Assembly (NCBI GenBank): GCA_037308085.1
Contig: CP147779.1
Span: forward strand, 1,536,001-1,600,000
Origin: Promethearchaeati archaeon SRVP18_Atabeyarchaeia-1
Lineage (GTDB): Archaea > Asgardarchaeota > Atabeyarchaeia > Atabeyarchaeales > Atabeyarchaeaceae
Direction of reading: 5' to 3'
DNA: 64,000 nt
This document shows positions 4,612-57,902 of the stretch, one piece after another. Positions within the stretch are counted from its first letter, which is position 1. Every line of letters starts with the position of its first letter. The notes beneath the pieces are model-generated. The model was not told the DNA's origin, did no database searches, and saw only the letters and a list, made by a program, of their open reading frames with translations. The position numbers were made by a program, and so were the translations under genes.

Positions 4612-5696
4612 CTACTTAAGGAGTTTCTTGATGAGATTCGCAATCTTCTTTGCTAGGATCGGAGGAACTGCGTTGGCAGCCTGCTGGTACTGACTATTCA
4701 ATGTCCCCATGAATCTGAATCTATCTGGGAAGCTCTGAAGCCTCGCAGCCTCTCTGACAGAGATTATTCCATGCTGCTGCGGGTGAAGAAGCATAGCCCT
4801 TCGCGCATGAACTACCGTCGGCGAAGGCCGACGCCAGGAGAGCCTGCTGTATATACTGCTGTGAAGAGCATCTCGATTATTGAACCTTTTTTAATAGTAT
4901 CAGGCAAGATATTCCATCCTTCCTAAGGCTCTTTCCCTGACCTATCAACCGGATCGTCTCAACGACTTCATCGCTATGTTCAGTGGACCAGTGGTTGTAG
5001 AGTCTGTTAGCTCTCTTCCAAAGCGTTGCGAGATAAGGAGAACCTCTTATCTTTGGGTGGACCACATTTTCTTTCCCACCTCCGCCCCGCGGGAGTGGCA
5101 GGAGATCCTGAATTGCATCACTCACACAGGTTGCGCCTATTCGCTTCAATAACGAAAAATCAAGTTCAGCGTTATCTAGAAAGCCTGCGACAAATAGCCT
5201 CCTTCTCATCTGTGGAATCCCGAACCACTGAGCTTCCAGGCGAGCAATTGAAAGCCTGTAGCCAAGATCGTTTAGATCCTTGTCGAACGCACCCCACTTG
5301 TCCATGTTTTGAAATCTGACAACGTTTTCGAAAAGAAACCCCTTAGGTCTGATCTCTTTGACCAGCCTTACAAAATGGGAAACCGAGGAAGCAGACGGGT
5401 GATTGCCTCTACAAGGATACATGTTCGCAGGCGAATAGGGCCTGACATGGAGGGACCCCAATCACGAATACTCTTTCGAAACCCATACGAGATGCTATGT
5501 CAAGAAGTTCTCGACCATGAACATCCTCTACATCTCCCAGCACCTGCACTTTACGGAAGTTGCGCTGATATGTCTTAGCTGAGTCAGGATCCTTTTCGAT
5601 AGCAGCGACTATCTTAAAACCGGCTTCCCTGAACCCTAGATTTAGCCCGCCTGCACCTGCGAACGAATCTATGACCCCTATATCCTTTGAAAGCAT
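4612..5696 (-). pseudogene. DNA (cytosine-5) methyltransferase pseudogene, paralogue of 16845..17954
   Basis: Motif I DSFAGAGG, PPCQ/PYSPAN, FENV and REAARLQSFPD..NAVPP are split over three reading frames (at least two frameshifts). Confidence 0.9.
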
Positions 5697-6023
5697 TATC
5701 CTACCTCTAGTACACGACCCCTTCGCTCGAAGCAAGATAATCCTTGATCCAATTCACAACTGTCGTTTCGCAGGCGGGACCGGTCGTCTAAACCAGTTTC
5801 TTTGAGGAATTACGGTCTCTAACGCTTCACAAAATCTCAGAGGCAAGCCACACGCTAGCTTGTATGGTTATGCCCTCATGCATCTCGCTTGATTGCTTCT
5901 GTTCTAGGGATAGTCATAGGCAACGAGGTATAAGATTCTATCTTATGGTGTGGAAAGGGCTGATTGAGTAGAGCTGTAGACACACGTTAATCATGTATGA
6001 ACGGAAGGTCCACGCTTTTCCTA

Positions 6024-16844: not shown

Positions 16845-17954
16845 TCACAGAACGCCTCCTCCTCTACCATCCAACAACCTCCTGATCAAGTGCGCGACCG
16901 CCTCTGCCACGAGCGGAGGGACCGCGTTAGCAACTTGTTGATATTGATCATTCAGCGAACCCATGAACCTAAACCGGTCTGGAAAGCCCTGGAGCCTTGC
17001 AGCCTCTCTGACAGAAAGTATCCTATGTTGCCCAGGATGAAGAAGCATGGCTCTGCGCGCGTGGACTATGGTTGGAGAAGCCCGCCACCTGCACAGCCTG
17101 CGGTAGATGTTACTGTGAAGAGCCTCAAGATTGGAATATCTCCCTTTAATATCCTCAGGTAAGCGCTTCCATGACCTCCGAAGACTCTCTCCTTGCTTTA
17201 TCAAGCGTATCGTGTCGACGACTTCACTACTGTGCACGGTGGAACGATGGTTGTAGAGCTTGGTAGCTCCTTCTAGAAGTCTCTCCACATAGAGGGATCC
17301 ATTCTTCATTGGGTGGACTGCATCATCCTTACCTCCTCCGCCCTCGGGTAGCCGTGGCAAGCCGCAAATCGCCTCTCCGACATGAGTCGGCTCACGATGT
17401 CCCAATAGTGAAAAATCAAACTTAACCCCATTCTTAAAGCCCGCAACAAAAAGTCTTCTTCTTATTTGCGGCACCCCAAACGTCCGCGCGTCGAGATGAG
17501 AAAACGAAAGCGTGTAACCAACATTGCTGAGAGCATTGACAAACGTCTCCCAGGTATTCATGCGCTGAAACCTCACGACATTCTCAAAGAGAAAGCCCTC
17601 AGGCTTGGTCTCTTGAACTATCCTAACAAAATGTGACACCGAGGAAGCGCAGGGGTGTCGATCACCATTGTTCTTGTGCGTATTTGCAGGCGAATACGGC
17701 TGACAGGGAGGCCCACCAACCAGAAACAATCTGTCAAATCCTGCACTAGCCGAGATGTCGACAAGGTCGGCACCATGAACATTCTCTGCATCTCCAAGTA
17801 GACGTACTTCAGGGAAATTGAGCTTGTAAGTCTGAGCGGAAGGAACATCTCGCTCCACAGCAGCAACTATTCTGAATCCAGCTTCCCTGAAGCCTAAACT
17901 AAGCCCGCCGGGACCTGCGAACAGATCTGTGATTGCGACATCTTCGTAAGGCAT
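16845..17954 (-). CDS. dcm: DNA (cytosine-5) methyltransferase
   Basis: DLFAGPGG, GGPPCQ, FENV, PQIRRR, REAARLQGFPD, NAVPP. Confidence 0.95.
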   Translation of the reverse strand: MPYEDVAITDLFAGPGGLSLGFREAGFRIVAAVERDVPSAQTYKLNFPEVRLLGDAENVHGADLVDISASAGFDRLFLVGGPPCQPYSPANTHKNNGDRHPCASSVSHFVRIVQETKPEGFLFENVVRFQRMNTWETFVNALSNVGYTLSFSHLDARTFGVPQIRRRLFVAGFKNGVKFDFSLLGHREPTHVGEAICGLPRLPEGGGGKDDAVHPMKNGSLYVERLLEGATKLYNHRSTVHSSEVVDTIRLIKQGESLRRSWKRLPEDIKGRYSNLEALHSNIYRRLCRWRASPTIVHARRAMLLHPGQHRILSVREAARLQGFPDRFRFMGSLNDQYQQVANAVPPLVAEAVAHLIRRLLDGRGGGVL

Positions 17955-33026: not shown

Positions 33027-34478
33027 CTAAAGTTTCAGTCCCGCTGCTGTGCGCTTGCCAAGCTCGGAATCAGCTTTCGCTAGGTTAGCCATCATACGCT
33101 GCTGAATCTGCTTGTTCGCCTTTCCAAGGGAATCGACTATGTTGTCAACTAGATGGTCCTGATCCACCTTGCTAAGCGAACGGTAGCGCTCGCCAGCCTG
33201 CTGGAAATCATTGGTCAGAGAGATCTTCTTTCGCACGATGTCTCCCTCTAGATGAGGGTGACTCACGATGATGCTTGGTGTCTCATGGGGCATTCCATCA
33301 GCCAGCGTATTGGGCTCATAGTTGACAGTGCCTCCACCATACGGCGCATATTGCATGAAGCCATCACGCTGGTTGTTGCTGACTGGTACTTTCGGTTGGT
33401 TCACTGGAATCTGTAGATAGTTGGGGCCTAGCCTGTGCCGCTGTGTGTCCGCGTAGCTGAAGACTCTGCCTTGCAGGAGTTTGTCGGCTGAGAGTTCTAC
33501 TCCTGGGACGATTGAGGCTGGGCAGAAAGCAGCTTGTTCTGTTTCGGCGAAGAAATTCTCTGGGTTGCGATCCAGTACCATCTTGCCAACTGGAATCAGT
33601 GGGAACTTGTTCTCTGGCCATGTCTTCGTAGGATCGAGTGGATCGAATTCCTGCTTCAATTCATCAGGGATTTCCATAGTTTGGACGTTCAATTCGTATT
33701 CCACGGTCTTCCCAGACGCGATTGTGTCGTATAGGTCACGTGTTGCGATGTCTGGGTCTTCCCCCGCGAAACGGGTTGACTCGTGGCGGTCGATCGTCTC
33801 TATCCCAGCCATCGGCTTCCAATGATACTTGACGTAGATAGCCTTGCCTTCCGCGTTCACCCACTTGTAGGTGTTTACGCCGAATCCTTCCATTTTTCTG
33901 TAGCTCTTGACCGTTCCTCGATCGGAGAATAGCCAAGTGATCATGTGGGTCGACTCGGGTGTCAAAGAGATGAAATCCCAGAAGCGGCTGTTCGCTGACG
34001 AGCTGGTCGGTATGCCCGTGTCAGGTGCAGGCTTGAAGGCATGTACCATGTCAGGGAACTTGATAGCGTCTCGAATGAAGAACACTGGCAGATTATTGCC
34101 TACTATATCATAGTTTCCATCTTCGGTGTAGAACTTGACTGCAAAACCCCTAGGATCACGGGCGGTATCGGCTGATCCCCGTGAACCCACCACAGTGGAG
34201 AAACGAACGAAGACCGGTGTCTTCTTCTTCGGGTCCTGAAGGAATTTCGCGCAGGTGTACTTCGCCATACTCTTGTAGACTTGGAAGTAGCCGTGAGCAC
34301 CGGCACCCTTGGCGTGCACGACACGCTCCGGAATGCGCTCACGGTCGAAGTGCGCAAGTTTCTCAATCAAGTGCACATCTTGCAGTAAGACGGGACCTCG
34401 CTCGCCAACTGTGAGTGAATTCTGGTTGTCGCTGACGGGAACCCCTTGATTTGTGGTCAGTTGCTTGTCTTTCGCCAT
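33027..34478 (-). CDS. katA: Monofunctional heme catalase
   Basis: FDRERIPERVVHAKG, VRFSTV, RVFSYADTQ. Confidence 0.96.
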   Translation of the reverse strand: MAKDKQLTTNQGVPVSDNQNSLTVGERGPVLLQDVHLIEKLAHFDRERIPERVVHAKGAGAHGYFQVYKSMAKYTCAKFLQDPKKKTPVFVRFSTVVGSRGSADTARDPRGFAVKFYTEDGNYDIVGNNLPVFFIRDAIKFPDMVHAFKPAPDTGIPTSSSANSRFWDFISLTPESTHMITWLFSDRGTVKSYRKMEGFGVNTYKWVNAEGKAIYVKYHWKPMAGIETIDRHESTRFAGEDPDIATRDLYDTIASGKTVEYELNVQTMEIPDELKQEFDPLDPTKTWPENKFPLIPVGKMVLDRNPENFFAETEQAAFCPASIVPGVELSADKLLQGRVFSYADTQRHRLGPNYLQIPVNQPKVPVSNNQRDGFMQYAPYGGGTVNYEPNTLADGMPHETPSIIVSHPHLEGDIVRKKISLTNDFQQAGERYRSLSKVDQDHLVDNIVDSLGKANKQIQQRMMANLAKADSELGKRTAAGLKL

Positions 34479-34536
34479 TACTGATATCCTCCTCTCATAC
34501 ATTATCCTTGCACAAGGGTATGTACGGAAGGCTATT

Positions 34537-34548
34537 TAATAGCTATTA
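34537..34548. promoter_or_regulatory. Putative PerR/Fur operator between divergent catalase and perR
   Basis: Perfect palindrome TAATAGCTATTA in an AT-rich divergent promoter. Confidence 0.5.
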
Positions 34549-34564
34549 TTACTTAATAGTAGCT

Positions 34565-35035
34565 ATGAACGAATACCAAGAATCCGACCTCCCTATAATC
34601 GAGGCTTTCCGTAAGAAAGGTTACAAAGCAACTCCACAGCGGATAGCGATCTGTCGACTTGCCCTTCGCACCCGCGGGCATCCAAGCGCACAAGCGATAT
34701 ACCAGCAGGTAAGGGCAGTCTTCCCGACTGTGAGCCTTGCAACAGTCTACAAAACTCTTCAGACCCTAGGTGAACTCGGACTGATCCAACAACTTAATTT
34801 CCCGCAGAGCCAAGCCAGATTCGATTCCTACATGAATCCTCACATAAATCTCGTCTGCACGCAATGCGGGAATATCCAAGATCTGGACGATCGTGCTGCA
34901 CGAGAACTGGTGGACAGAGCCTCCTCGGCGGCCAAATTCACCGCAACGGGGCAACGCCTCGACATATATGGCATTTGTGATAGGTGCCGAAAGAGAGGAA
35001 GAACTGCGCCGGTCGAGACCGCAATGGTTGACTAG
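34565..35035 (+). CDS. perR: Fur/PerR family regulator
   Basis: TPQR, HPSA, SLATVYKTL, H.NLVCTQCG, GICDRC; divergent from catalase. Confidence 0.85.
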   Translation: MNEYQESDLPIIEAFRKKGYKATPQRIAICRLALRTRGHPSAQAIYQQVRAVFPTVSLATVYKTLQTLGELGLIQQLNFPQSQARFDSYMNPHINLVCTQCGNIQDLDDRAARELVDRASSAAKFTATGQRLDIYGICDRCRKRGRTAPVETAMVD

Positions 35036-37330: not shown

Positions 37331-37726
37331 ATGCCAAGAGGTTATCAAAAGACATCCACAACTATTTACCTGATGAACTACCACTTCGTGTGGAGCCCAA
37401 GATACAGGAGAAAACTGCTGGTCGGGAAGGTCGCCAAGAGGCTGGAGCACTTAATATACGAAAAGGCGAAACAACTGGAGTGCCGAGTTATCCAGCTAGG
37501 AATCATGCCTGACCATGTGCACCTCTTCATAGAGAGCAACCCGAGGATATCCCCAAACCGGGTCATAGGAGAGATGAAAGGCTACACATCACGGGTTCTG
37601 AGGCACGAGTTCCCAGAGCTGCTGAGGATGCCGACTCTATGGACAAGAAGCTACTTCGCCAGCACGGCAGAAAACGTAAGCTCAAAGATAATAGAGGAGT
37701 ACATTGAGGCTCAGAAAGGAGCTTGA
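37331..37726 (+). CDS. tnpA: IS200/IS605 Y1 (HUH) transposase
   Basis: YHFVW.P.YR, DHVHL, LW.RSYF, YI..Q. Confidence 0.95.
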   Translation: MPRGYQKTSTTIYLMNYHFVWSPRYRRKLLVGKVAKRLEHLIYEKAKQLECRVIQLGIMPDHVHLFIESNPRISPNRVIGEMKGYTSRVLRHEFPELLRMPTLWTRSYFASTAENVSSKIIEEYIEAQKGA

Positions 37727-37730
37727 AACC

Positions 37731-39056
37731 ATGCAGGTTACCAAGACCGTCAGGATACCTGTGCACTACTCAATAACGAGGCATAAGCTAGGCATCATAG
37801 ACAAGCTGACGGCCAGGTTGACTTGCGGGGTAGACTTGTGGTCACGGCTGATCGAGGAATACGGCATTAAAGAGAGGGGTAAGCTCAGAAGCCGCGCTTT
37901 TGAGGCTCAGGTGAAGGAGAGAACTGGTCTTGGGGCTGGTCTAGTCCAGTGCTGCGGGGATACTGCCCTCTGGATGTGGCGAAGCTACAGGGAGCTGCAT
38001 AGAGCCTGGGCGGAAGCAGTGGAGATGGCTGGGAGACGAAAGGAGTGGGAATGGCATGGGAAGCTCCTAAGGAGAGAACCCAGGAAACCGCTCACTAGCG
38101 GTCTCAGTCACAAGGTCCCAATCTGGTTCGACTACCGCGTAGGCAAGCTGGAGCACGCCAAGAGTATCAGGATCGCAAGTCACGTTATCCGCGTAGCTAC
38201 GCTGCGGAAAGGTGAATGGGTCACAATTCCGCTTAATGCTGCCCCTTATCATGCTAAGCTGCTTGAGCTGGGGACAGCCAAGAGCTTCCAAATCGTGAAG
38301 AAAGACTCCAAGTACTATGTCCATGTCAAGATTGATTATGACGTGCCGGATAGGCCTGTTGCGGGCGTTCTGGGCGTGGATCTGGGGGTTAAGCGCCAGG
38401 CGGCAACCGTGTTGCTGATCGGCGAGAAGCCCCGAATCACTCCACGGTCCTTCACGACAATCCGGGATGGAGAGAAGAGGCACCGCCTTGACAGGCTGAA
38501 CAGGCTTGTCTCCGACCTGCAGCAAGCAGGGAAGTACGATGCCCTGAGGCGGCTAAGGCACAAAAGGAAGCGCGTCGCAGAGCACTTCGACCGTGTATCC
38601 GCTGTGACGCTCGCCGACATGTCTGAGGGATGTCTCCTCGTCGTCGGCTACCCGAAGGGCATAAAATACAGGAGCTACAGGGGCAACGGCAAGAGAAAGC
38701 TGCGGAAGGCGCTGACGCGCTGGAGCTACGGCCGCATCATGCGGTTCACGGTGGAGGAGAGGGCTGAGAGAGGTCTTCCGACGTTGGTCGTTGATGAGCG
38801 GTGGACCTCCAGGACGTGCTGGAAGTGTGGCTCAAGGCAGACCCTCCGCTTGAACCAGTCGACCCTCTTCTGCCGGTGCTGTGGTATGACTTTCAACGCT
38901 GACTACAACGGTGCGTTGAACATCGGCCTGCCTTACTTGGCTAATGCCGCGGGTCGAGGGGCTGCAGATGAGCCAGCCCAGGAAACCGGGGATGAACAGG
39001 CAAGAGAAATAGTAGCCTGCAAGCCCGGAAGCCAACACCCTTCAAGGGGTTGGTAG
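37731..39056 (+). CDS. tnpB: TnpB with rearranged RuvC-II
   Basis: GVDLG; VVGYP at the canonical Glu position; DERWTS; CWKC..CRCC; NADYNGA.NI. Confidence 0.9.
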   Translation: MQVTKTVRIPVHYSITRHKLGIIDKLTARLTCGVDLWSRLIEEYGIKERGKLRSRAFEAQVKERTGLGAGLVQCCGDTALWMWRSYRELHRAWAEAVEMAGRRKEWEWHGKLLRREPRKPLTSGLSHKVPIWFDYRVGKLEHAKSIRIASHVIRVATLRKGEWVTIPLNAAPYHAKLLELGTAKSFQIVKKDSKYYVHVKIDYDVPDRPVAGVLGVDLGVKRQAATVLLIGEKPRITPRSFTTIRDGEKRHRLDRLNRLVSDLQQAGKYDALRRLRHKRKRVAEHFDRVSAVTLADMSEGCLLVVGYPKGIKYRSYRGNGKRKLRKALTRWSYGRIMRFTVEERAERGLPTLVVDERWTSRTCWKCGSRQTLRLNQSTLFCRCCGMTFNADYNGALNIGLPYLANAAGRGAADEPAQETGDEQAREIVACKPGSQHPSRGW

Positions 39057-39946: not shown

Positions 39947-40489
39947 ATGGCAAATAATAAACTTACTAACATTACTGCAGAACCAGGAGGACGAGAGATC
40001 GTCATCACCCGAGTCTTCGAAGCGCCGCGCGAACACGTGTTCAAGGCGTACACGGATCCGAATCTCATACCCCTATGGTGGGGTCCGAAAAAGTATGCTG
40101 CTACTGTTGACAAAATTCAGGTGAGCGCGGGGGGTGTTTGGCGATTCGTCCAGCGTGGACCCGACGGCAATGAGTACGCCTTCAACGGCGTGTATCACGC
40201 GATCGTGCCACCCGAGCGACTTGTCTCCACATTTGAATTCGAAGGTATGCCGGGTCATGTATCGCTTGAAACGGTGAAGTTAGAAGAGCAAGACGGCAAG
40301 ACAAAGCTCACGGCCACATCTGTCTTCCAAACGGTTGAAGATCGCGACGCGATGCTCAAGTCGGGAATGGAGGAAGGAGCGGTCGAGACCATGGATCGTC
40401 TTGCCGAACTTCTGCGAAAGCCTAAAGCGTTAACGAAAGAGAAAAGGGGTGAGTCTAGCCATGATCCCAATTCGAGGAGAGTGAGGTGA
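39947..40489 (+). CDS. SRPBCC/AHSA1-domain protein
   Basis: ITRVFEAPR..VF.A.TDP....WWGP, GG.WRF, SGMEEG. Confidence 0.9.
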   Translation: MANNKLTNITAEPGGREIVITRVFEAPREHVFKAYTDPNLIPLWWGPKKYAATVDKIQVSAGGVWRFVQRGPDGNEYAFNGVYHAIVPPERLVSTFEFEGMPGHVSLETVKLEEQDGKTKLTATSVFQTVEDRDAMLKSGMEEGAVETMDRLAELLRKPKALTKEKRGESSHDPNSRRVR

Positions 40490-40630
40490 GATTGCAGTCC
40501 ACAACTTCTAAGTAGAGCCACGTGGAATGATCCGTGAAGCAGTTTCGGGAGGAAACTGACAGTAGGAGAGTGCGCTCCTTTTTGGGAAAGACGGAACCGA
40601 AAGACTCAAAGACTCTACGGTATTTGAGTC
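40461..40630 (+). repeat. 170-bp duplicated segment, copy 1 (copy 2 at 56211-56380), ending in the 33-bp repeat
   Basis: Collinear, high similarity by eye; reads as the relic 3' end of a gene (..EIAVxNFxVEPxGMIxEAVSGGN*). Confidence 0.85.
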
Positions 40631-40795
40631 CTATTCCGCGATACTTCTTTTTCGAGGCGGGGTCAACTTGACTAGCAAGAGAAACTACCCCTGACAATAA
40701 AGAAGGGATGCTAGCATGTGCCGCACGAGTGACGTCTTGTAGCCCCCTGCCCATGAAAATCAGGTCAGAAAAGAGCATTGAAAGCGTTCCATGCA

Positions 40796-41638
40796 CTAAG
40801 CAGGCTTTTCCTTATCCATCTCATCTAGCAAGACCTGTACATCGTCTTCGTCTAAAAGGTCAAACCTTGTTATTCTCCATTGGACTTTCCGACATATTGG
40901 AGTGCCTGGATATGCTCCAACATCGTACAGCTCGTAGTTTCGGAAGATTGTTGGCTTCTCTTGGTAGCATGTCCACACCGCCTTCTTTAAAGTATCAGTA
41001 TCTTCAACTCCTGTGAGATCTATGATTGCCACCTGTTTTCTAAACCTATCAACAGCTTCCATTGTGATGTTGAAAAGGTAAGGCTTGAGTGCCCTCGCAC
41101 CCTTTATGCGTCTTCCCTTGTCAAGCCCCTCTTCGATTAACGCCTTAATAGCCATCCCAGGCATATGCCCCTCAACGCCTCTCCCACATAGTACGAGGTA
41201 GCGTATGTTCGGGTTAGCAACGATATTCGCAATGATTTTCTCGATCCCGATGTTCGCTGTTTGCAGGGTTCCCGCTAGTGCTGCGCCGGACTCGATGGCA
41301 CTCCTTACAAGAGTTTCGATGCCACTGGGGATCTCGCCATAAGATGAACTTAGAAGGGTAATGACAGCTACTGGGGAGTAATCATTTCCTCGGAGATAGT
41401 GCCCATCCTCTGGAGGATAATCATCTGGAGGCTTAACCTTCCGTATCTCCTCAATAATCTCTATCGCTCCTTGAGGACACTTCTCCTCGCATCCTCCGCA
41501 TCTCGAGCATTTCTCCTCTGCCACTGGGACAGCTAGTTCTCTCTCACCGACGGTTCGAAATTCATAGATTCCTTGAGGGCAGGTGTCCACGCAGACGCCG
41601 CATCCCGAGCACTTGTCTTCGTCAACCTTGATCTTCAC
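40796..41638 (-). CDS. 2x[4Fe-4S] ferredoxin-MtrA (corrinoid-binding) fusion
   Basis: CSGCGVCVDTCP and CSRCGGCEEKCP; TANIGIEKIIANIVANPNIRYLVLCG..VEGH; GTG start overlaps the upstream TGA. Confidence 0.88.
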   Translation of the reverse strand: MKIKVDEDKCSGCGVCVDTCPQGIYEFRTVGERELAVPVAEEKCSRCGGCEEKCPQGAIEIIEEIRKVKPPDDYPPEDGHYLRGNDYSPVAVITLLSSSYGEIPSGIETLVRSAIESGAALAGTLQTANIGIEKIIANIVANPNIRYLVLCGRGVEGHMPGMAIKALIEEGLDKGRRIKGARALKPYLFNITMEAVDRFRKQVAIIDLTGVEDTDTLKKAVWTCYQEKPTIFRNYELYDVGAYPGTPICRKVQWRITRFDLLDEDDVQVLLDEMDKEKPA

Positions 41639-42363
41639 TGTCTCCCTGCGCCTCGCTCCCTCGCTGCCTTCTTGATGCGTTCGATTAGACTTAGCTCCTC
41701 GCTTGTCGTCTGGTACTTCCACGGTTCCTTGACCCTTACGGTTATCTTGGTACATATCGCTGGCTTGGGGTAGGCTCCTTCATCATGGAGAAGGTAGCCT
41801 CTGAACTCCACGGGCCTCCTGCTTCTGCACGCTGAGACAGCCTCCCTGACGTATTTAGCATTCATTCCGAGCCAGGGTTCATCCTCTGATATCAGGTTGA
41901 CAGGTTTAATCTGCTCCCTAAACCTCTCAGTTGCCTCTAGCGGCAGATTGTATAGGAATGGTGTTGGGGCCTCAGCCCCGATTATTCTTCGCTTCTCGTC
42001 CACTCCGTTCCCCAAGAGTTTCATAATCGCGTCCGCAGTCAAGTGGCCCGCAGACTCTCTCCAGCATATCACGAGGTATCGTATGTTCGGATTAGCCACA
42101 ACATTCGCAATGATTTTCTCGATCCCAATGTTCTCCGTCTGCACGCTTCCCGCAAGGGTAGCACCGCAGTCTATCGCGGTGCCAATGAGCTCGCTGAGTT
42201 CGACTGGAATATTAGATTCAAGTGTGTCAAGGATCGCCGCTACAGCAACCGGGGAATAATCATCTCCTCTAATGTATCTACCCTCTTCAGGCGGGTACCC
42301 TGGTGGCGGTTTGACCTTGGGGACATCCATACCACTATTCACGTCTACGTTATCACCTCTCAA
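41635..42363 (-). CDS. Soluble MtrA-like corrinoid protein
   Basis: YPPEEGRY.RG...SPVAV, TENIGIEK..NPNIRYL..GH; no C-terminal membrane anchor. Confidence 0.88.
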   Translation of the reverse strand: MRGDNVDVNSGMDVPKVKPPPGYPPEEGRYIRGDDYSPVAVAAILDTLESNIPVELSELIGTAIDCGATLAGSVQTENIGIEKIIANVVANPNIRYLVICWRESAGHLTADAIMKLLGNGVDEKRRIIGAEAPTPFLYNLPLEATERFREQIKPVNLISEDEPWLGMNAKYVREAVSACRSRRPVEFRGYLLHDEGAYPKPAICTKITVRVKEPWKYQTTSEELSLIERIKKAARERGAGRQ

Positions 42364-42584
42364 TCTTGAATTTCAGCTCCTTATTTTTGGCGACTTAAAA
42401 ACCTGTGAAACAAAACGGCTGTCGACACTTGAAGAATAAACGCTATCACGACCACGAATGTTGATGGGTCCCAAATGACAGGACTGCAATTCCCAATGCT
42501 GTGGGCAGGTTCTTCATGCCAGAAGCGTAAGTCACTGAAATACCCTTTGCTCTATTGAAAATCTCTTTTCGGCGCGCATGGGCT

Positions 42585-42854
42585 CTATTCTTCTGCTTCA
42601 CTACGGATGGCATCTTCTAGCTTTTGTGCGTTGAACGTGAACTCGGTCATCTTGATGCCTCCGTTAACGACTACAGCCTTGGTTGACGTCAGACCATATT
42701 TCAAGGCTTCGTCGGAGAAAGCTTGCTTAACTTGGAAGTCAACCTGGCCCCTGAATTTCAAGACAACACTCCAGACCTTATCCATGAAGCTCTGCCAAGA
42801 ACACGCGCAGGCCCCAGTGGGAACAAACACTTCGACCCTGACCTTCTTATCCAT
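42585..42854 (-). CDS. Small thioredoxin-fold protein with CxC motif
   Basis: VEVFVPTGACACS...KYG.....VVVNG. Confidence 0.65.
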   Translation of the reverse strand: MDKKVRVEVFVPTGACACSWQSFMDKVWSVVLKFRGQVDFQVKQAFSDEALKYGLTSTKAVVVNGGIKMTEFTFNAQKLEDAIRSEAEE

Positions 42855-42911
42855 AGTTTACTACCTTCCATATCCATCCTTTGCTGTCTACGGTTCTATC
42901 AATCAGGAGAC

Positions 42912-42973
42912 ACATATTTAAGTTTATAAATATGTTTGGGTCACAAAATACATATTCAGATAGATGAATATGT
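42912..42973. promoter_or_regulatory. Two tandem inverted-repeat operators ACATATTYA-N6-TRAATATGT
   Basis: Perfect 9-6-9 IRs at 42912-42935 and 42950-42973 in the divergent promoter. Confidence 0.8.
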
Positions 42974-43048
42974 TCTTGCTTATGGAAATTAATTCAAACT
43001 AGATGCTTTGCATGCAACAAAGTAAGAGAAAAGAGGGATTGAGCTAAT

Positions 43049-43471
43049 TTGAGCGAGGAAGGCAAAGTTGTCGTCTTGGCCTGTAGTGGCATAGGTAAGG
43101 TTCTGGGGTCGATCACTCGCTTGGTCCTCTACCACATAATAGATGAAATGAGGAGGCAGAACACGACCACGACTTGTCTGCCACTGGTTGCGCTCAAGGA
43201 CAAAGAAGCCGTTGCGCTCGTCAGTAACCATCCATGCATAACTATTGACGGCTGCCCTAACAAATGTGCGAAGGTTTCTGCTGAGAACGCTGGTGCGACC
43301 GCGGTAAAGGCTTTCACTGTGGCCGAGTTCATGCGGAAGTTCAAAGACCTGAAGCCTTCAGCCGCTTCAGTGCTGGAGCCCGGACAAGGTGGAAGGGCAC
43401 TCGCGCGCAAGATTGCTGAACAAATAAGTCTGGAAGTCGACGAGCTATCAAACGAGAATGTCCGGTTTTGA
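43049..43471 (+). CDS. DGC-domain putative Zn-binding protein
   Basis: ACSG, CLP, IDGC...CA. Confidence 0.85.
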   Translation: MSEEGKVVVLACSGIGKVLGSITRLVLYHIIDEMRRQNTTTTCLPLVALKDKEAVALVSNHPCITIDGCPNKCAKVSAENAGATAVKAFTVAEFMRKFKDLKPSAASVLEPGQGGRALARKIAEQISLEVDELSNENVRF

Positions 43472-43937
43472 GGAGGTCCCACGGTTGAGTGAGCATGGCG
43501 ATTGGATGCGCAATAAGGTTGGCGTGGTAACGTGCAGCGGAGAAGAAATCTCCGAGGGAATGGTCTCTAGAGTAGCTGCGAGAAAAGTCCTTGAAGAGCT
43601 CGAACCTAATGACACTATGACGATATGTATTCCTCTTTACTTGGCGGGAGGCGAGGAGGAGAGAAGCTTTGTAACAAAGTCCCCAACAGTCACAATTGAT
43701 GGTTGTGATAAGCTCTGTGCGAAAAGGAGTGTTGAGAAGGTTGGGGGTCGACCCATAGCGGCGGTTGTGGTTACTGACTTCATGAAGAGAGAACACGTCA
43801 AACTCAAGACAGAGTCGCGAAGGGAACTTGAGCCAAAGGGTGCAGAACTGGCAAACACCATTGCTTCCAAGGTCGCTGCCATTATCGAGGATTACGTGAA
43901 GGCTCAAGGCAGAGTGACTGGAAGAAGGGAGGGGTAG
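43458..43937 (+). CDS. DGC-domain putative Zn-binding protein (paralogue)
   Basis: TCSG, CIP, IDGCDKLCA. Confidence 0.85.
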   Translation: MSGFEEVPRLSEHGDWMRNKVGVVTCSGEEISEGMVSRVAARKVLEELEPNDTMTICIPLYLAGGEEERSFVTKSPTVTIDGCDKLCAKRSVEKVGGRPIAAVVVTDFMKREHVKLKTESRRELEPKGAELANTIASKVAAIIEDYVKAQGRVTGRREG

Positions 43938-43941
43938 GAAC

Positions 43942-44397
43942 ATGGAGTTTCTTGAATTTACTATTGACAAATTCATCTTCAGAGTGGTCAAAGGCAACAA
44001 GTACTCTCAAGATGATGTCTGGCTTGCTAGTGCGGGTGAGAGAAGGTGGAGGATCGGGATAACTGACTTCCTTCAGAAAACGAGTGGCGACGCAGTAATT
44101 GCACAATTGCCAGATTTGGGCAGGACCTTTCAGAGGGGTAGCGAGGTGGCGCAGTTTGAAACTGTTAAGACTATCATCTCAGTTCCTATGCCCGTCACCG
44201 GCAAAGTTGTCGAAAGAAATGACAGGATTCTTGATGAGCCTGGGCTCTTGAACAGCGATCCGTATGGTAAAGGCTGGATAGTCACAGTTGAAGCGAGTAA
44301 CGTAGAGAAAGAGTTCAAGCACTTGCTCTCTGACAGCTCCTATTTTGAGTTAATGAAGAAAAAGGTCAGCGAGGTTCAATCCAAGCCGAGAAAGTAA
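43942..44397 (+). CDS. gcvH: Glycine cleavage H-like lipoyl carrier
   Basis: IGITDF.Q...GD, ETVK (lipoyl Lys), N.DPYG.GW. Confidence 0.88.
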   Translation: MEFLEFTIDKFIFRVVKGNKYSQDDVWLASAGERRWRIGITDFLQKTSGDAVIAQLPDLGRTFQRGSEVAQFETVKTIISVPMPVTGKVVERNDRILDEPGLLNSDPYGKGWIVTVEASNVEKEFKHLLSDSSYFELMKKKVSEVQSKPRK

Positions 44398-44472
44398 ACA
44401 TGTCAATATAACATTGTCTCTTGGATCATCGTGTCTATTCCAGAGCCAGATATGTAGGGGTGGTGTTAGTTC

Positions 44473-44898
44473 TTGCCAGTCTACAGAACTAAGGTAACTT
44501 GGTTGGGCGGGAATACTGGTAGCCTTGAGTGTGGGAATGGCACCCGAATGGATTTTAGCGCTCCTCCAAGCCTCCACGGCAAACATGGGGTGATGACTCC
44601 GGAGGATGGTTTCGTGGCTTCGCTGAACATGTGCGTGCACATGATGTTTATTTGGGTCGCAGAGAGGATGAAGATAGAACTTCTGTCTTATGAGTGTGAA
44701 GCGGAGGGGACAGTTCAGGACAGACTTGATAGGACATCCGTCTTTACGAAGCTGATTTTGAGACCAAGAATAGTAGTTAGGATGGCGACAGAAGAGAAGG
44801 TCAAACAGGCGATGCAGCTAGCGAGGAAATTCAGTCTAGTGGCAGAATCAATAAGACCTGAGGTAGTCATTGAGCCCGAGGTAACAATTAAGCGTTAA
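44473..44898 (+). CDS. OsmC-family protein
   Basis: APP...G.....TPED..VASL..C; second Cys apparently replaced (FSLV). Confidence 0.8.
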   Translation: MPVYRTKVTWLGGNTGSLECGNGTRMDFSAPPSLHGKHGVMTPEDGFVASLNMCVHMMFIWVAERMKIELLSYECEAEGTVQDRLDRTSVFTKLILRPRIVVRMATEEKVKQAMQLARKFSLVAESIRPEVVIEPEVTIKR

Positions 44899-45103
44899 CA
44901 CTCCTCTCACCGTATTAACCAGAGTCGCACCTGCTATATATGTGAAGGTCATCTATACGAGCCAGTAGAAGCAGGAGTCTTTGGTGTCTTTGCCTTGGTT
45001 ACGCCCGCTATTTGCGCATCATACCCAAATTTCGTTATTGTGGTGGTCAGCGGATGCGTCAAGTACGAACCTAAGAAGTTCTGAAGAAAACCAATATGGC
45101 GTG

Positions 45104-45820
45104 TTACCCTGTTCCTCTTCTTATCATCTCTGCATACTCGTGTGGTAACTCTGAAGCCTCGATGGCGCTCGTCATTCTTTCCACATCATATTGAACTCTC
45201 CTAAAACCTATGCTCAACTCTTCAGCTGGAGTCAAGAGAGCGTAAGTTGCCCTTGGGTCACCATCCTTGGGCTTTCCGAGACTTCCGACGTTTACGACAT
45301 GCTTATCGTCTATCACCTTGTGGTAGGGCAGATGCGTATGTCCACACACGAGGAGATTGCATCCTCCTGCCTGCAGGAGGCGATTGAAGGTCTTCGCTGG
45401 TCTGTCCTCGTATAGGTACTCATTAATCCTTCTGGGGCTACCATGAGTGAGAAGGATCTCGAATGCCTCTTGGCTGAAGCGTAGCTCGCGCGGCAGGGTC
45501 CTCAGGAATTCCTTGTTCTCCCTTGTGACGTGGGTCTTCGTCCAATCTAGGGAGCGGTGACCGAGCAATCTCTGCGTTTCGTCTGTATAAGCGCACCCAC
45601 AGTCGTCTCTCTCAAAGCCGACACCTTCATCATAGTTGCCCATCACACCTGCGATTCCCTTGCTCCTTATGCTGCTTATCACTTCATTTGGAAAGGGGCC
45701 GTATCCAACAAGGTCCCCACAGTGGAGGATCTTGTCAGCGCCTTGCTCTTCAATGTCAAGGAGAACCGACTCAAGGGCGGGAAGGTTGCTGTGAACATCG
45801 GAGAAAATCGCGTACTTCAT
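45104..45820 (-). CDS. Metallophosphoesterase (calcineurin-like; ars-operon-associated type)
   Basis: SDVHSN, GDLVGYG, GNYD, DCGCAY, HGSPR, GHTH. Confidence 0.9.
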   Translation of the reverse strand: MKYAIFSDVHSNLPALESVLLDIEEQGADKILHCGDLVGYGPFPNEVISSIRSKGIAGVMGNYDEGVGFERDDCGCAYTDETQRLLGHRSLDWTKTHVTRENKEFLRTLPRELRFSQEAFEILLTHGSPRRINEYLYEDRPAKTFNRLLQAGGCNLLVCGHTHLPYHKVIDDKHVVNVGSLGKPKDGDPRATYALLTPAEELSIGFRRVQYDVERMTSAIEASELPHEYAEMIRRGTG

Positions 45821-45844
45821 GGGGGGTGACCATCTCGAGTTTCT

Positions 45845-46234
45845 CTACTTCAGCGATTCCAGTTTCTTCATGGTCTCAACAATCTTTGGGTTTGCAAGGG
45901 AATAGTAAGCCCACTTCCCTTCTTTCCTTCTTTCTAGCAAACCCTCCTTCTCCAACAGCACTAGGTGGTGAGACGCAGTTGGTTGTGTCATGTCCAATGC
46001 AGCCATTATCTCGCAAACGCACATCCTGCGAACCATTAATAACTTCAATATTCTAATTCTGCTGTCGTCACTTAGAGCTTTGAAGAGCCGGCTTTCTCTG
46101 ATGGCTAAATCCTTGTTCGCTACCTTGGCAGCCAACTCCTTCAACTCATTCGCGTATCTGGAAGCATCTTTGCCCTGGCAATAGGGCGAAGCAACCAACC
46201 TAACCAGTCTCCTGTCAGAATGACTCTTCGACAT
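45845..46234 (-). CDS. arsR: ArsR repressor
   Basis: FKALSD..RIRIL, MCVCEI (alpha3 As(III) site), SHHL..L...GL. Confidence 0.9.
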   Translation of the reverse strand: MSKSHSDRRLVRLVASPYCQGKDASRYANELKELAAKVANKDLAIRESRLFKALSDDSRIRILKLLMVRRMCVCEIMAALDMTQPTASHHLVLLEKEGLLERRKEGKWAYYSLANPKIVETMKKLESLK

Positions 46235-46253
46235 GTTCTCATCCACTGCTAGT

Positions 46254-46277
46254 TCATATCTGCGAGACCAAATATGT
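46254..46277. promoter_or_regulatory. Operator copy upstream of arsR
   Basis: TCATATCTG-CGAGAC-CAAATATGT. Confidence 0.65.
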
Positions 46278-46487
46278 ATTTTGCCGGAAGGCAACTTCAG
46301 CCGCTTGAGCTATTGAAGCACCTTGACCCCATAAAGATCTGTGAAACGGCCAGCGCCGCGTTCCCCCCTATTTCTGTCGGTGACGGTCTGCCCCTCCTCT
46401 GAGCATTGTTCCAAACCAGTATCTATGTTAATCTCTTGTCGCTTCTGTGCCGATCATAATAAGATATATATGTCACTTCTTGCGGAT

Positions 46488-46519
46488 TCATATTAATAAA
46501 TCTAAATACGTAAATATGA
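46488..46519. promoter_or_regulatory. Operator copy (or copies) upstream of acr3
   Basis: TCATATTAA-TAAATC-TAAATACGT, plus an overlapping TAAATATGA half-site. Confidence 0.6.
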
Positions 46520-46531
46520 ACCTAGATAGCG

Positions 46532-47620
46532 GTGTGGAACATGCCTGAGAAATCCTTGAAGAAACTTTCGCTGATCGATAGGTTACTTCCGATCTGGATT
46601 TTTCTTGCGATGGCTATCGGCGTGGGAGCAGGGTGGGCATTCCCACAGATTGCGACGATTTTTAACATGCTCCAGATAGGAACGGTTTCGCTTCCCATTG
46701 CGATCGGATTGCTGTGGATGATGTATCCTCCCCTTGCTAAGGTGAAGTATGAGGAGCTCGGGAAGATTAAGGGTGCGAAGAAAATGTTTGGAGTGTCGCT
46801 CTTCCTAAACTGGGTAATTGGACCTTTCCTCATGTTTTCGCTGGCCTGGCTCTTTCTGCCTGATCTGCCTGATTATAGGGTTGGTATCATCATAGTTGGG
46901 TTGGCTAGATGCATTGCGATGGTCTTGATATGGAACCTGCTTGCAGGCGGTGATAGTGAGTATGCCGCTGTCTTGGTTGCTCTCAATTCGATCTTCCAGA
47001 TGGTGTTCTACTCGATCTACGCCTACTTCTTCGTGACCTTGCTCTCCTCTTGGGTAAGCGGGTCTGCGGGCATGGTCGTGAATATCTCGGTTTGGAGTAT
47101 CGCGCAGAGCGTTTTGATCTTTCTCGGTCTTCCTTTCGCCGCCGGAATAATCACTAGGTTCACGTTGATCCACAGAAAGGGGAAGGTATGGTATGAAGAG
47201 AAATTCATTCCGAGGCTGAGCCCCACCGCAATCATCGGCCTCCTCTTCACAATAGTCGTAATGTTCTCCATGAAAGGTGAGTACATATTGAATTTGCCTT
47301 TTGATGTGCTCAGGGTTGCCGTCCCTCTGGCGTTGTATTTTCTGATAATGTTTTTCACTTCTTTTCTCCTGTCTTGGCGCTTGAGGTTCAGTTATCCTGA
47401 AACGGCGACGCTCTCCTTTACCGCTGCGAGCAACAACTTTGAGCTTGCGATAGCTGTAGCTGTCGGGGTGTTCGGGATAAACTCGGGGCAGGCTTTCGCC
47501 GCAGTCATAGGGCCTCTAATCGAAGTTCCGGTGCTTATCGGCCTAGTCTACGTTTCACTCTGGCTAAAGACCAAGATGTTCGCCAAGGCGAGAAGATCTG
47601 GGATGAGTGGCAAGACCTAA
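46532..47620 (+). CDS. acr3: Acr3 arsenite efflux transporter
   Basis: [36 protein letters not shown]. Confidence 0.95.
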
Positions 47621-47901
47621 GAGCGATGCTGCAAGCCTGAAAGCCAACGGTAGCTTAGTCTGAATCTGAAGGACGGAACGGGTGGGAGAGGCAAGGACGC
47701 TCAACTTCAGCGAGGACTCCGTCGAAAGACTCAAAGACTCGCCGGTGAAAAGCGCGCGCTCCGTTTCTGGAAAACTCTGAATATGTGAGAGTGTCTAACA
47801 AGTTTTCCTCAATGAAGAAAGAAAGAGTGAGTGGCTTTTAGGTTCACACTTCCGTAACCCTAATCCTTTCTGGTAGGTAGCGCGCGCTATGAGGGCTAAA
47901 T

Positions 47902-56139: not shown

Positions 56140-56540
56140 CAGCCCCCCTAGTTCTCTTCGGTCACTTCTTGGGTTTGCGCAGATACTCTGGAATTGGAAC
56201 ATCCCTGCTCATGATCCAAAATCGAGGAGAGGAGGGTGAGATAGCTGTCCGCAACTTCCAAGTAGAGCCAAGTGGAATGATCCTTGAAGCAGTTTCGGGA
56301 GGAAATTGACACGAGGACTGCGCGCTCCTTTCTGGGAAAGACGGCACCGAAAGACTCAAAGACTCGCCAGTATTTGAGTCCAAGTTTCCTCCAAACACTT
56401 CTTTTTGAAAAAGAGCTTTCAGCTCTGATTCAGACTGACCTTGATCAGTCTTAAGAGAAGCATGCAGTGCAGAGAAAACGAGGTTTATCGACGTTGGCAG
56501 ATTCTCGACAATTCAAGTGTCTCAACCCCGTCGAGCTCTC

Positions 56541-56804
56541 TCAGGGTCGGTAGACTCTCTTTCTGAGGTCCAGATTAACCAAGACTATTATGCTCTCTTT
56601 TTCGTAGATCTTGAATAGTGCTCTATACTTTCCAAGGCGCAATCTGAAGGTATCCTCTTCTCCAGCAATCTTGACAATGTCCAGTTTGGCACTCGGAAAG
56701 TCTTCGAGTTCTCTGAGCTTTTCTATTACCCGTGTCCTACTGCTGGCATCCAGCCTCCCAATAGCTGATTCAACTTTTCTGTGAAGTAGAACCCTGAACT
56801 TCAT
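56541..56804 (-). CDS. RelE/ParE-family toxin
   Basis: FRLRLGKYRALF, R..VY. Confidence 0.85.
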   Translation of the reverse strand: MKFRVLLHRKVESAIGRLDASSRTRVIEKLRELEDFPSAKLDIVKIAGEEDTFRLRLGKYRALFKIYEKESIIVLVNLDLRKRVYRP

Positions 56805-57018
56805 CGAGAGGCGTCAACTCACTCAATTTCCTTTCCTTGATCATATTGTCAGCTTCTCTGAGCAGTCTGTATTCTTCTGGTGTCAAGAAGACGTCTTCAA
56901 GGAACTCGCGCAATTCATCGATCTTTCTGTCGATCTCCTTGACTTTGTTTAGAACTGATGAACTCGTGGAAACCACCAATCCAGAGTTAATGGAGCGTGT
57001 CTTAAAAAGTCTTCCCAA
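56770..57018 (-). CDS. Putative cognate antitoxin (true start probably downstream of 57018)
   Basis: Small acidic protein (LTPEE..LDEV) overlapping the toxin start. Confidence 0.65.
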   Translation of the reverse strand: MGRLFKTRSINSGLVVSTSSSVLNKVKEIDRKIDELREFLEDVFLTPEEYRLLREADNMIKERKLSELTPLDEVQGSTSQKS

Positions 57019-57477: not shown

Positions 57478-57684
57478 ATGCGTCAAGTTATCCTTTATCT
57501 TGGCGAAGATGGCTACTGGGTTGCTGACTGCTCCAGTCTACCTGGATGTGTTAGCCAAGGCAAGACAAAGGAAGAGGCTATCGCCAATATTAAGGAGGCC
57601 ATCCAAGGTTACATCGAAGCATTGCAGGATGACAATATGCCTGTGCCTGCTGAGCATTTTGAGGCTATCGTGGTGGCAGTATGA
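57478..57684 (+). CDS. hicB: HicB antitoxin
   Basis: EDGYW.A....LPGC.SQG.T.EEA..NIKEAI. Confidence 0.9.
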   Translation: MRQVILYLGEDGYWVADCSSLPGCVSQGKTKEEAIANIKEAIQGYIEALQDDNMPVPAEHFEAIVVAV

Positions 57685-57902
57685 GCAAACTACCCCTCAT
57701 CTCGGGTCGTAAGTGCGTAAAGGCGCTGGAAAAGACGAATTTCTATATCAAGAGGCAAAGCGGAAGTCACATAATCCTGCGCCGCGACGATCCTTTCACT
57801 CAAGTTGTAGTCCCTGATCATAAAGAGCTCGACTGAGGAACTCTGCTAGCCATCATAAAACATGCCGGTCTGACAGTCGAAGACTTTATGAAGCTTCTTT
57901 AG
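57681..57902 (+). pseudogene. hicA: HicA toxin with an in-frame TGA
   Basis: MSKLP..SG...KAL....RQSGSH....VVVPDHKELD*GTL..I...AGL; TGA at 57834-57836. Confidence 0.88.

Follow-up and report, generated by a model that had tools for sequence, protein, structure and literature searches.

The stretch of DNA analysed here comprises 64,000 nucleotides (nt) from the genome of Promethearchaeati archaeon SRVP18_Atabeyarchaeia-1, a single contig (CP147779.1) of 2.81 Mb and 96.9% completeness. This window corresponds to G000:C1:1536001-1600000 and contains, at 40796-47620, a block of ten genes that looks like one ArsR-controlled, arsenite-type regulon. In addition to an ArsR repressor and the arsenite efflux permease Acr3, the block encodes two soluble relatives of the corrinoid protein MtrA, one of which is fused to a ferredoxin (Fd-MtrA), together with a small thioredoxin-like (Trx-like) protein, two DGC-domain proteins, a GcvH-like lipoyl carrier, an OsmC-like protein, and a metallophosphoesterase. 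The MtrA pair is very probably a true member of the arsenic regulon, and the feature as a whole points to a real, recurrent, and unpublished-looking variant of the ars system with a B12-dependent step. No paper describing an MtrA or other corrinoid protein together with ars genes was found in a literature search reaching few subscription journals.

Operator-Like Palindromes and Probable Regulation

The view of the block as a single regulon is taken because a palindrome of the form CATAT-N12-ATATG is enriched in it and is conserved at the same places in a 78%-identical relative. Three operator-like palindromes with an 8-8-8 layout all fit this pattern (palindromes 1-3 in Table 1), and the whole 2.81-Mb genome contains eight copies, of which four fall into a 5.4-kb stretch of the block and three of these into promoter regions. 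The relative is a metagenome contig (L004) carrying all ten genes in unchanged order between different flanks, the value of 78% referring to its Fd-MtrA. Its palindrome in front of the trx-like gene has been kept although the adjacent intergenic DNA has diverged, and its copies lie in the acr3/arsR and DGC/trx intergenic regions, as compared with five in the remaining ~1.1 Mb of unrelated fetched loci. A second motif, GTTTCACAG(G/A)T(T/C)TTTA, occurs on the minus strand at 42387-42411 and 46323-46347, upstream of mtrA as well as arsR; L004 has retained part of this motif, which may represent a promoter element.

Linkage to ars Genes in Other Genomes

A scan of one genome per species yielded 215 relatives of the MtrA-like proteins, and 80 loci were fetched and 79 counted, their neighbours being labelled by profiles seeded from the window and from recurrent neighbour clusters. 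An ars-type gene lies within 5 kb in 43 of these 79 loci, 39 of which have a permease, Acr3, ArsM, ArsC, or ArsD-like gene, and the corresponding value for loci whose flanks each extend over at least 4 kb is 19 of 36. The co-occurrence which an earlier note on this DNA had proposed to look for is thus evident, and the opposite outcome that it had considered, namely a clade usually unlinked to ars genes, was not encountered. The loci derive from Planctomycetota, Acidobacteriota, Aerophobota, Chloroflexota, Bathyarchaeia, and Thor-, Sif-, and Hadarchaea. Their usual gene order is ArsR-ArsP-MtrA-Trx3-(DGC)-TlpA-DsbD, supplemented by ArsM, Acr3, ArsC, an AhpD-like CMD protein, and a flavin mononucleotide (FMN) reductase, and the genes of the MtrA-ars operons often overlap or lie a few bases apart.

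The cassette of the window reappears in a bacterium of the Acidobacteriota (L081) as ArsR-ArsM-Acr3-ArsC..GcvH-DGC-DGC-OsmC-Trx3-MtrA. Bathyarchaeia contigs with Fd-MtrA proteins of 51-52% identity show the order Trx3-ArsP-ArsR-FdMtrA-DGC-DGC-DUF169, with GcvH-DGC-DGC-DGC, OsmC, DsbD, thioredoxin reductase, and ArsR-Acr3 close by. At locus L005, which has no ars gene, an MtrA/Fd-MtrA pair stands beside feoAB. On a quick maximum-likelihood (ML) tree of the family, the ars-linked members group together, the ars label requiring 16 changes as compared with a mean of 27.5 after shuffling (as low in 0 of 500 shuffles); 18 of the 19 members of a Planctomycetota subclade are ars-linked, and one Desulfobacterota subclade is mostly not. 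ArsM is encoded in the same operons at 17 of the 79 loci (directly adjacent in six), ArsC lies directly beside MtrA in six, and ferredoxin-fused MtrA proteins are present in nine loci, all of them archaeal. A search of plasmids recovered a separate DUF4346 clade in Planococcus only, which has no ars genes nearby. Six Planctomycetota ars operons (L030, L031, L032, L050, L063, and L068) contain an FMN reductase gene (PF03358) directly before the mtrA-like gene, and the reductase of L032 starts with a twin-arginine-like N-terminus.

Relatedness of the MtrA-Like Proteins

Both MtrA-like proteins exceed the gathering cut-off of PF04208 (25 bits) by far and reach the cut-off of the subfamily model NF002126 (176.9 bits for Fd-MtrA and 161.3 bits for MtrA, cut-off 161), while they remain under that of TIGR01111, the equivalog model of true MtrA (142.3 and 133 bits, cut-off 249). 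The family profile matches the solved MtrA at E = 1e-45, and the His of the GH motif, which the earlier note had found to be kept in both domains, falls on the cobalt ligand His84; all 89 sequences of the tree and all 65 members of a deeper protein set have its equivalent. An AlphaFold2 (AF2) model of Fd-MtrA (mean predicted local distance difference test, pLDDT, 87.1) places a bacterial-type ferredoxin domain, with two complete CxxCxxCxxxCP motifs, in front of the MtrA domain. The latter fits the structures 5L8X/5LAA with a target template modelling (TM) score of 0.93-0.95 and at an rmsd (root-mean-square deviation) of 2.1 Å. As judged from the alignments and the model, both proteins probably bind a cobamide via the conserved His. 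The absence of a membrane anchor, also claimed in the earlier note, agrees with the ends of both chains, which are charged tails with no hydrophobic helix, and the family shares a conserved C-terminal extension of ~60 amino acids (aa) with an extra near-invariant Cys (PIC).

The two proteins differ at the position of Glu54, which forms a hydrogen bond to His84 in MtrA (PMC4915002). This Glu is retained in the stand-alone MtrA ("E-type") and replaced by Ala in Fd-MtrA ("A-type", QTANIG, with the His84 equivalent within LCGRGVEGH) and in 18 of 65 relatives; Glu is absent from 6 of the 89 tree sequences, as counted by alignment column, and from 19 of the 65 in the deeper set. With ~47% identity between them, MtrA and Fd-MtrA are, by sequence comparison, old paralogues that did not arise by a recent duplication. 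On the quick tree, the stand-alone MtrA lies within an archaeal, mostly ars-linked Fd-MtrA clade (support 95) and has therefore apparently lost its ferredoxin, and Fd-MtrA branches with a different, mixed group characterised by Ala or Gly in place of Glu54. One metagenome contig encodes a protein of 473 aa (P0005) in which a Glu-type and an Ala-type MtrA domain are joined in the order of the window, without a ferredoxin; this fusion suggests that the two types work together. A complex prediction for Fd-MtrA and MtrA gave a score of 0.20 against a mark of 0.32, which is no evidence either way.

Some of the long MtrA relatives are fused to TusA (P0122 and P0173), and a recurrent 197-aa neighbour of the Ala-type group carries a TusA domain. 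A strict link between the Ala54 type and a TusA neighbour was considered and rejected, as six Glu-type loci also have a TusA neighbour.

Gene Content of the Block

The block was read by listing of open reading frames and by Pfam and NCBIfam profile searches (Table 1). All genes named in the earlier note were present on the strands given there, and its statement that the module holds no other mtr, gcv, arsC, or arsM genes was confirmed, such genes existing elsewhere in the genome; for ArsC, neither Pfam nor NCBIfam gave a match in the block.

Table 1. Coordinates of genes, operator-like palindromes, and dif-like sites in and around the block (positions of the window).
Feature	Position	Strand	Remarks
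Full dif-like site, GACTCAAAGAC-TCTACG-GTATTTGAGTC, in 33-nt repeat	40598-40630	+	Left block boundary
Fd-MtrA, 2x[4Fe-4S] ferredoxin fused to soluble MtrA-like domain	40796-41638	-	PF04208, 150.8 bits
CATAT-N12-ATATG, fourth copy	40893-40914		Within 3' part of fd-mtrA coding region
MtrA, stand-alone, soluble, E-type (QTENIG, LCWRESAGH), without ferredoxin or membrane helix	41635-42363	-	PF04208, 137 bits
CxC thioredoxin-like protein, 89 aa, C-A-C motif	42585-42854	-	No Pfam match; weak SaoT/TsoX matches far under cut-off
Operator-like palindrome 1, CATATTTAAGTTTATAAATATG	42913-42934		Divergent trx-like/DGC promoter region; conserved in L004
Operator-like palindrome 2, CATATTCAGATAGATGAATATG	42951-42972		Divergent trx-like/DGC region
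DGC-domain protein 1, four invariant Cys	43049-43471	+	Pfam
DGC-domain protein 2, four invariant Cys	43458-43937	+	Pfam; predicted model flavodoxin-like
GcvH-like lipoyl carrier	43942-44397	+	Pfam, NCBIfam; lipoyl Lys kept
OsmC-like protein	44473-44898	+	Pfam; far under every NCBIfam peroxiredoxin cut-off
Metallophosphoesterase, YfcE-type	45104-45820	-	Pfam, NCBIfam; 24 nt downstream of arsR
ArsR/SmtB repressor, C-V-C in DNA-binding helix region, one N-terminal Cys	45845-46234	-	NF033788, 96.1 bits (cut-off 55)
Operator-like palindrome 3, CATATCTGCGAGACCAAATATG	46255-46276		21 nt upstream of arsR ATG
Palindrome copy, one mismatch	46489-46510		~30 nt upstream of acr3
Acr3 arsenite efflux permease	46541-47620	+	TIGR00832 equivalog, 438.5 bits (cut-off 282.8)
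Half dif-like site, left arm and spacer only	47723-47746	+	Right block boundary

The start of fd-mtrA is most likely the GTG at 41638, predicting 280 aa as compared with 279-280 aa in called homologues; it overlaps the stop codon of mtrA as GTGA and is preceded by a purine-rich stretch. ArsR most likely starts with the ATG at 46234 and would then have 129 aa, the same as the ArsR of L004, and its C-V-C was read in RRMCVCEIM and lies in the helix forming the As(III) site of classical ArsR proteins. The genome has no Acr3 other than that of the block and no DGC genes beyond these two. A DGC model (pLDDT 89.8) retrieved no solved relative at E <= 0.001, giving weak flavodoxin-like matches only, and a PDB sequence search with the DGC protein returned nothing.

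The GcvH-like protein retains the lipoyl-lysine motif, its ETVKT aligning with ESVKA of the Escherichia coli protein (3A8I), and stays under the equivalog cut-off of TIGR00527 (102.3 vs. 115.85 bits). It is one of three GcvH-like proteins encoded in the genome and is not linked to gcvT or gcvP, the GcvT gene being located ~955 kb away at C1:624892. The 89-aa thioredoxin-like protein resembles, by language-model features, an archaeal counterpart of the Thioredoxin_3 genes flanking bacterial MtrA, which we take as a lead only. The metallophosphoesterase was observed with the module only in this genome and in L004. As read from its sequence, the OsmC-like protein has its two Cys ~24 residues apart (NMCVH ... 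YECEA) and seems to miss the usual C-terminal catalytic Cys of OsmC/Ohr.

A Site-Delimited Array Around the Block

The earlier note had described two 33-bp sites bracketing the block. These are indeed dif-like sites, with the qualification that the right one is a half-site and that more copies follow beyond it. An 18-nt core (CGAAAGACTCAAAGACTC) recurs exactly at 40598 and 47723, as compared with 0.11 matches expected in the window, and the sites can be read as GACTCAAAGAC-N6-GTATTTGAGTC, which is the 11-6-11 layout of dif-type sites. Five copies of the core with up to two mismatches are present in the 2.8-Mb genome, plus a sixth copy with three mismatches in the window, all of them on the plus strand between 40598 and 57983; a reading as a genome-wide dispersed repeat was rejected, since the sites are confined to this 17-kb stretch. 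Further full sites are found at 49335, 56348, and 57148, and the segments between the sites contain the ars module, a transporter of the major facilitator superfamily, 7 kb of mixed content, a RelE-like pair at 56541-57018, and, at 57478-57836, a HicAB pair. By this layout the block is part of a site-delimited accessory array, and because of the half-site at 47723 and the full copies beyond, it appears as the first of several such segments and not as a uniquely bracketed unit. The dif-like site was also found flanking HicAB on the metagenome contig L093 and, on L092, upstream of thrS; it is absent from L004, and no integrase gene was found in the window.

The left site is contained in a 197-nt repeat (40460-40652 and 56210-56406), for which no significant RNA structure was predicted (z = -0.28). 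An element of the IS200/IS605 type with a Y1 transposase gene (TnpA, 37331-37726) and tnpB (37704-39056) is located just upstream of the site array. A reading of the repeat as omega-RNA was rejected, because it lacks a significant structure and is unrelated to the 3' end of the adjacent tnpB, and the 3' end of the element shows no sequence relation to the dif-like sites.

The Rest of the Genome

The genome encodes an ArsM of 305 aa at C1:1752005, ~170 kb downstream of the block, two low-molecular-weight protein tyrosine phosphatases (LMW-PTP) as possible ArsC proteins, GcvT, the two further GcvH-like proteins, and members of the lipoate-ligase family; an ArsP-type permease was not found. The ArsM gene is accompanied by a DUF169 gene and a divergent regulator gene of the HxlR family (4841-7067 of locus L090, G000:C1:1747000-1759000), with no CATAT-N12-ATATG site. 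At least nine proteins with a B12-binding domain (PF02310) are encoded, and CobS and CbiC were not found in the 96.9%-complete contig. As judged from this gene content, the archaeon probably scavenges its cobamides and makes wide use of corrinoids.

A third MtrA occurs as a 510-aa MtrA-MtrH fusion beside a thymidylate-synthase-like gene (L003, G000:C1:237932-241435), 1.3 Mb from the block, and represents a very distant outgroup on the quick tree (end branch 5.2). Separate clades of the family (P0203-P0233) have MtrA fused either to thymidylate synthase (PF00303) or to dCTP deaminase and DUF4346. These gene arrangements hint at a link between cobamide or MtrA-type proteins and thymidylate metabolism.

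Within the window, a catalase gene and a gene for a Fur-family regulator form an oxygen-defence pair (33027-35035), the other gene content appearing anaerobic, and the regions 4648-5674 and 16902-17932 represent a duplication of ~1 kb with 69% identity. Rfam and tRNA scans of the 64-kb window gave no matches. DNA of the archaeon occurs in freshwater-sediment and wetland metagenomes according to a sequencing-run search, and no RNA datasets carrying its sequence were among the runs listed.

Discussion

The explanation of the block as a whole towards which we lean, if only by a little, is an arsenite-responsive regulon with a two-cobamide MtrA unit acting on thiol-held arsenic. ArsR would bind to the CATAT-N12-ATATG sites before the operons of arsR and the phosphoesterase, acr3, the trx-like gene (with mtrA and fd-mtrA), and dgc-dgc-gcvH-osmC, and would release these operons upon binding As(III) or Sb(III), as suggested by its sequence. 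Acr3 exports arsenite. A thiol/dithiol set is formed by the Cys-rich DGC proteins, the lipoyl carrier, and the CxC thioredoxin-like and OsmC-like proteins, and this set would bind or pass on thiol-reactive arsenic or repair the damage caused by it; GcvH and the DGC proteins in particular may serve as As(III) carriers, the lipoyl Lys and the four invariant Cys of the DGC proteins being present. MtrA and Fd-MtrA are presumably made together and probably constitute a two-cobamide unit, as indicated by the overlapping stop and start codons and the natural fusion in a relative. Low-potential electrons for the formation of Co(I) would enter through the fused 2x[4Fe-4S] domain, and the target of the Co(I)/methyl-Co(III) chemistry would be arsenic bound to the thiol partners or the thiols themselves.

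The likeliest form of this chemistry would be a methyl transfer and, within it, the anoxic removal of methyl groups from methylarsenicals rather than methylation. Demethylation is favoured because methylation is already covered by ArsM, here as well as at 17 of the 79 loci, because the known demethylase and oxidase need oxygen, and because canonical MtrA moves a methyl group between cobalt and a thiol. That the step is a methyl transfer involving arsenic remains a tentative proposal. Its more specific form, in which the MtrA pair with its ferredoxin would be the missing oxygen-independent methylarsenical demethylase, taking the methyl group to cobalt (reverse Challenger chemistry or transmetalation) and then to a thiol carrier, is unlikely when taken by itself.

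Several observations weigh against the preferred explanation. Repressors of the ArsR type that have CxC sites can also respond to Cd, Pb, or Zn. In the MtrA-like proteins, the meander motif GAIPF(Y/F)xEN is kept in part only (G-A-x-x-P-(Y/F)-L-x-N, with loss of the Glu), and the ferredoxin-fused paralogue has Ala in place of the partner of the His ligand. The MtrA-like family is not strictly bound to arsenic, because about half of its loci, mostly of Desulfobacterota, have no ars gene nearby, and the proteins most regularly encoded beside it are of a general thiol/disulfide kind (Trx3, TlpA, DsbD, AhpD-like proteins, and TusA), which would fit redox or sulfur chemistry equally well. A loading or unloading methyltransferase is absent from the block and does not recur beside the family. 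Cobamide-dependent methylation of arsenic is not needed, because ArsM is present in the genome and at 17 of the 79 loci, and the cobamide itself probably has to be scavenged, because CobS and CbiC were not found in the genome. Note also that the tree is a quick ML tree without bootstrap and that the fusion protein P0005 is known from one contig of 1962 nt only.

Some of these points lead to a reductase without any movement of methyl groups, in which Co(I) would reduce As(V), pentavalent organoarsenicals, or the disulfides or persulfides of the Trx-like, DGC, lipoyl, or TusA proteins. Ferredoxin and cobamide would then pass electrons along a short path, comparable to that of reductive dehalogenases and QueG, in agreement with the fused 2x[4Fe-4S] domain of the archaeal members (9 of 79 loci), the FMN reductase genes that bacterial operons often place directly before MtrA, the lack of ArsC from the block, and the fact that CxxC proteins and sulfur carriers make up almost all of the conserved partners. 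From general B12 chemistry, the loss of Glu54 in the Fd-fused paralogue would weaken the ligation by His and thereby favour Co(II)/Co(I) reduction. However, neither sequence nor fold relates the proteins to RdhA or QueG, the two LMW-PTP genes of the genome could encode ArsC, the presence of ArsC next to MtrA in six loci argues against a simple replacement of ArsC, and all characterised MtrA proteins act as methyl carriers (PMC4915002). Reductive electron transfer is rated as rather doubtful but only a little less likely than methyl transfer, in view of the ferredoxin or FMN-reductase partners and the CxxC neighbours; it suits the ferredoxin fusion and the thiol proteins just as well. A general role in sulfur or thiol chemistry, e.g., in the handling of protein persulfides or of methylated thiols together with carriers of the TusA, Trx, and DGC types, would make the ars genes mere co-travellers in thiol-stress islands. 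Such a role would suit the roughly half of the loci without ars genes, the L005 pair adjoining feoAB, and the TusA fusions and TusA-domain neighbours, and GcvH-like lipoyl carriers and TusA do act in sulfur relay (sHdr/LbpA system). It is nevertheless unlikely, because the promoters of the pair in this genome have their architecture and operator in common with those of arsR and acr3, because 18 of 19 Planctomycetota members lie inside ArsR-ArsP...Acr3/ArsM operons with overlapping or near-touching genes, and because the linkage to the Acr3 equivalog, ArsM, and ArsC is far above the ~1-2% that we estimate for a random gene.

The earlier note had proposed an undescribed corrinoid-dependent pathway of metalloid methylation, demethylation, or detoxification. 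Of this, the placement of MtrA in an arsenic module stands by the shared operator and the co-occurrence, and cobamide binding is plausible, whereas a role as arsenic methylase is not needed given ArsM. In a methylation pathway of the HgcAB kind, methyl-Co(III) would methylate As(III) or Sb(III) on the thiols of DGC or GcvH, the ferredoxin reactivating Co(II). Methylcobalamin does methylate arsenite non-enzymatically in the presence of thiols. The linkage of the family to ars genes is established, the domain logic is the same as that of HgcA plus HgcB, a corrinoid protein with a 2x[4Fe-4S] ferredoxin, and hgcAB is likewise often flanked by arsR, acr3, arsC, and arsM (PMC7438021). Yet the S-adenosylmethionine-dependent ArsM is encoded in the same genome and in the same operons (17 of 79 loci, adjacent in six), and no methyl-loading enzyme is linked. 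Moreover, methylarsenite exceeds arsenite in toxicity under anoxia, and its production would therefore be a poor detoxification unless it were exported, and the genome has no ArsP-type permease; arsenic methylation is thus regarded as improbable. Chance neighbourhood, finally, with the MtrA genes as left-overs of one-carbon (tetrahydromethanopterin, H4MPT) metabolism beside an ars operon, could appeal to the database annotation as tetrahydromethanopterin S-methyltransferase subunit A and to the MtrA-MtrH fusion of the genome. This fusion is a very distant outgroup located 1.3 Mb away, both proteins of the block score under the TIGR01111 cut-off (142 and 133 vs. 249), and the conservation of the module as a unit in L004, the operator in common with arsR and acr3, and the linkage across phyla already contradict such a reading, which is hardly credible.

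If the demethylation proposal holds, cobamide-dependent breaking of C-As bonds would occur across anaerobic bacteria and archaea and would explain anaerobic demethylation in paddy soils and sediments. The speciation of arsenic in anoxic soils and sediments governs its toxicity to rice and the resulting yield loss. Oxygen is required by ArsI, the known C-As lyase, and by the oxidase ArsH, and we know of no enzyme of oxygen-free arsenic demethylation. The anaerobic process has been regarded as unresolved, with corrinoid methyltransferases, including those of methanogens, under suspicion (bioRxiv 10.64898/2026.08.27.747368). A cobamide protein family in the ars regulons of many anaerobic phyla would represent a concrete and clonable candidate for this reaction, would add a new cofactor to arsenic biology, and would provide a second case, beside HgcAB, of a corrinoid protein plus ferredoxin tied to toxic elements. 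To this, the window contributes a defined candidate operator, a two-paralogue unit with a Glu54-less, ferredoxin-fused member, and the recurrent DGC, GcvH, OsmC, and Trx partners.

Comparison With Known Systems

Reductive dehalogenases and QueG contain a cobamide and two [4Fe-4S] clusters, which is the same cofactor set as that predicted for Fd-MtrA; fold and sequence are unrelated, and the likeness is one of cofactor logic only. The same logic of corrinoid protein and 2x[4Fe-4S] ferredoxin, often beside arsR, acr3, arsC, and arsM, is known from HgcA/HgcB (PMC7438021), whereas the proteins of the block have an unrelated cobamide domain, a putative His ligand instead of the cap-helix Cys of HgcA, and no transmembrane domain. 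That they are not homologous to HgcAB, as the earlier note had held, is borne out by the profile scores: the HgcAB model NF043039 matches only the ferredoxin part of Fd-MtrA (residues 35-98) with 47.6 bits against a cut-off of 285, and the HgcB-type model NF040864 gives 42.6 bits against 99, as for a generic ferredoxin.

The SAO/TSO selenoprotein operons (Haft; bioRxiv 10.1101/2022.07.06.499078), which have been proposed to handle metal-carbon species, likewise combine an ArsR-type regulator, a small Cys-overloaded thioredoxin-like protein, GcvH- and OsmC-related proteins, and an ArsP-like exporter; the term MtrA is absent from the text of that paper. The proteins of the block remain far under all the respective cut-offs (in bits/cut-off, SaoT 21.5/65, TsoX 17.3/52, TsoR 60.1/115, GcvH_rel_desulf 37.9/150, and OsmC_like_Se 16.6/95), and the block has no selenocysteine codons, MerB-like lyase, or ABC transporter.

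Closest in fold are MtrA of the methanogenic methyl-H4MPT:coenzyme M methyltransferase and its cytoplasmic homologues (5L8X, 5LAA, 8Q3V; PMC4915002), which share the Rossmann-like fold, 36-41% identity, the invariant His at the position of the cobalt ligand, Glu54 in the E-type protein, and the LC(G/W)...GH and NPNIR stretches. Homologues of MtrA from bacteria and non-methanogens were already known to exist and mostly to keep His84, no function having been assigned to them (Wagner, Ermler, Shima 2016; PMC4915002). The proteins described here differ from MtrA in lacking the C-terminal membrane helix, mtrB-H neighbours, and an mtrEDCBAFGH operon, in scoring below the equivalog cut-off, and in having the ~60-aa C-terminal extension, Ala54 in the Fd-fused paralogue, the archaeal ferredoxin fusion, and a gene context of ars genes and thiol carriers. 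With the classical ars operons (ArsR-Acr3/ArsB-ArsC with ArsM, ArsP, and ArsD as accessories), the block has in common an ArsR of the C-V-C type, Acr3, divergent promoters with palindromes, and thiol-type accessory proteins. No described ars gene encoding a cobamide protein turned up in the literature searches, and it is by the MtrA-like putative cobamide proteins, together with the DGC, GcvH-like, and OsmC-like members, that the block differs from these operons.

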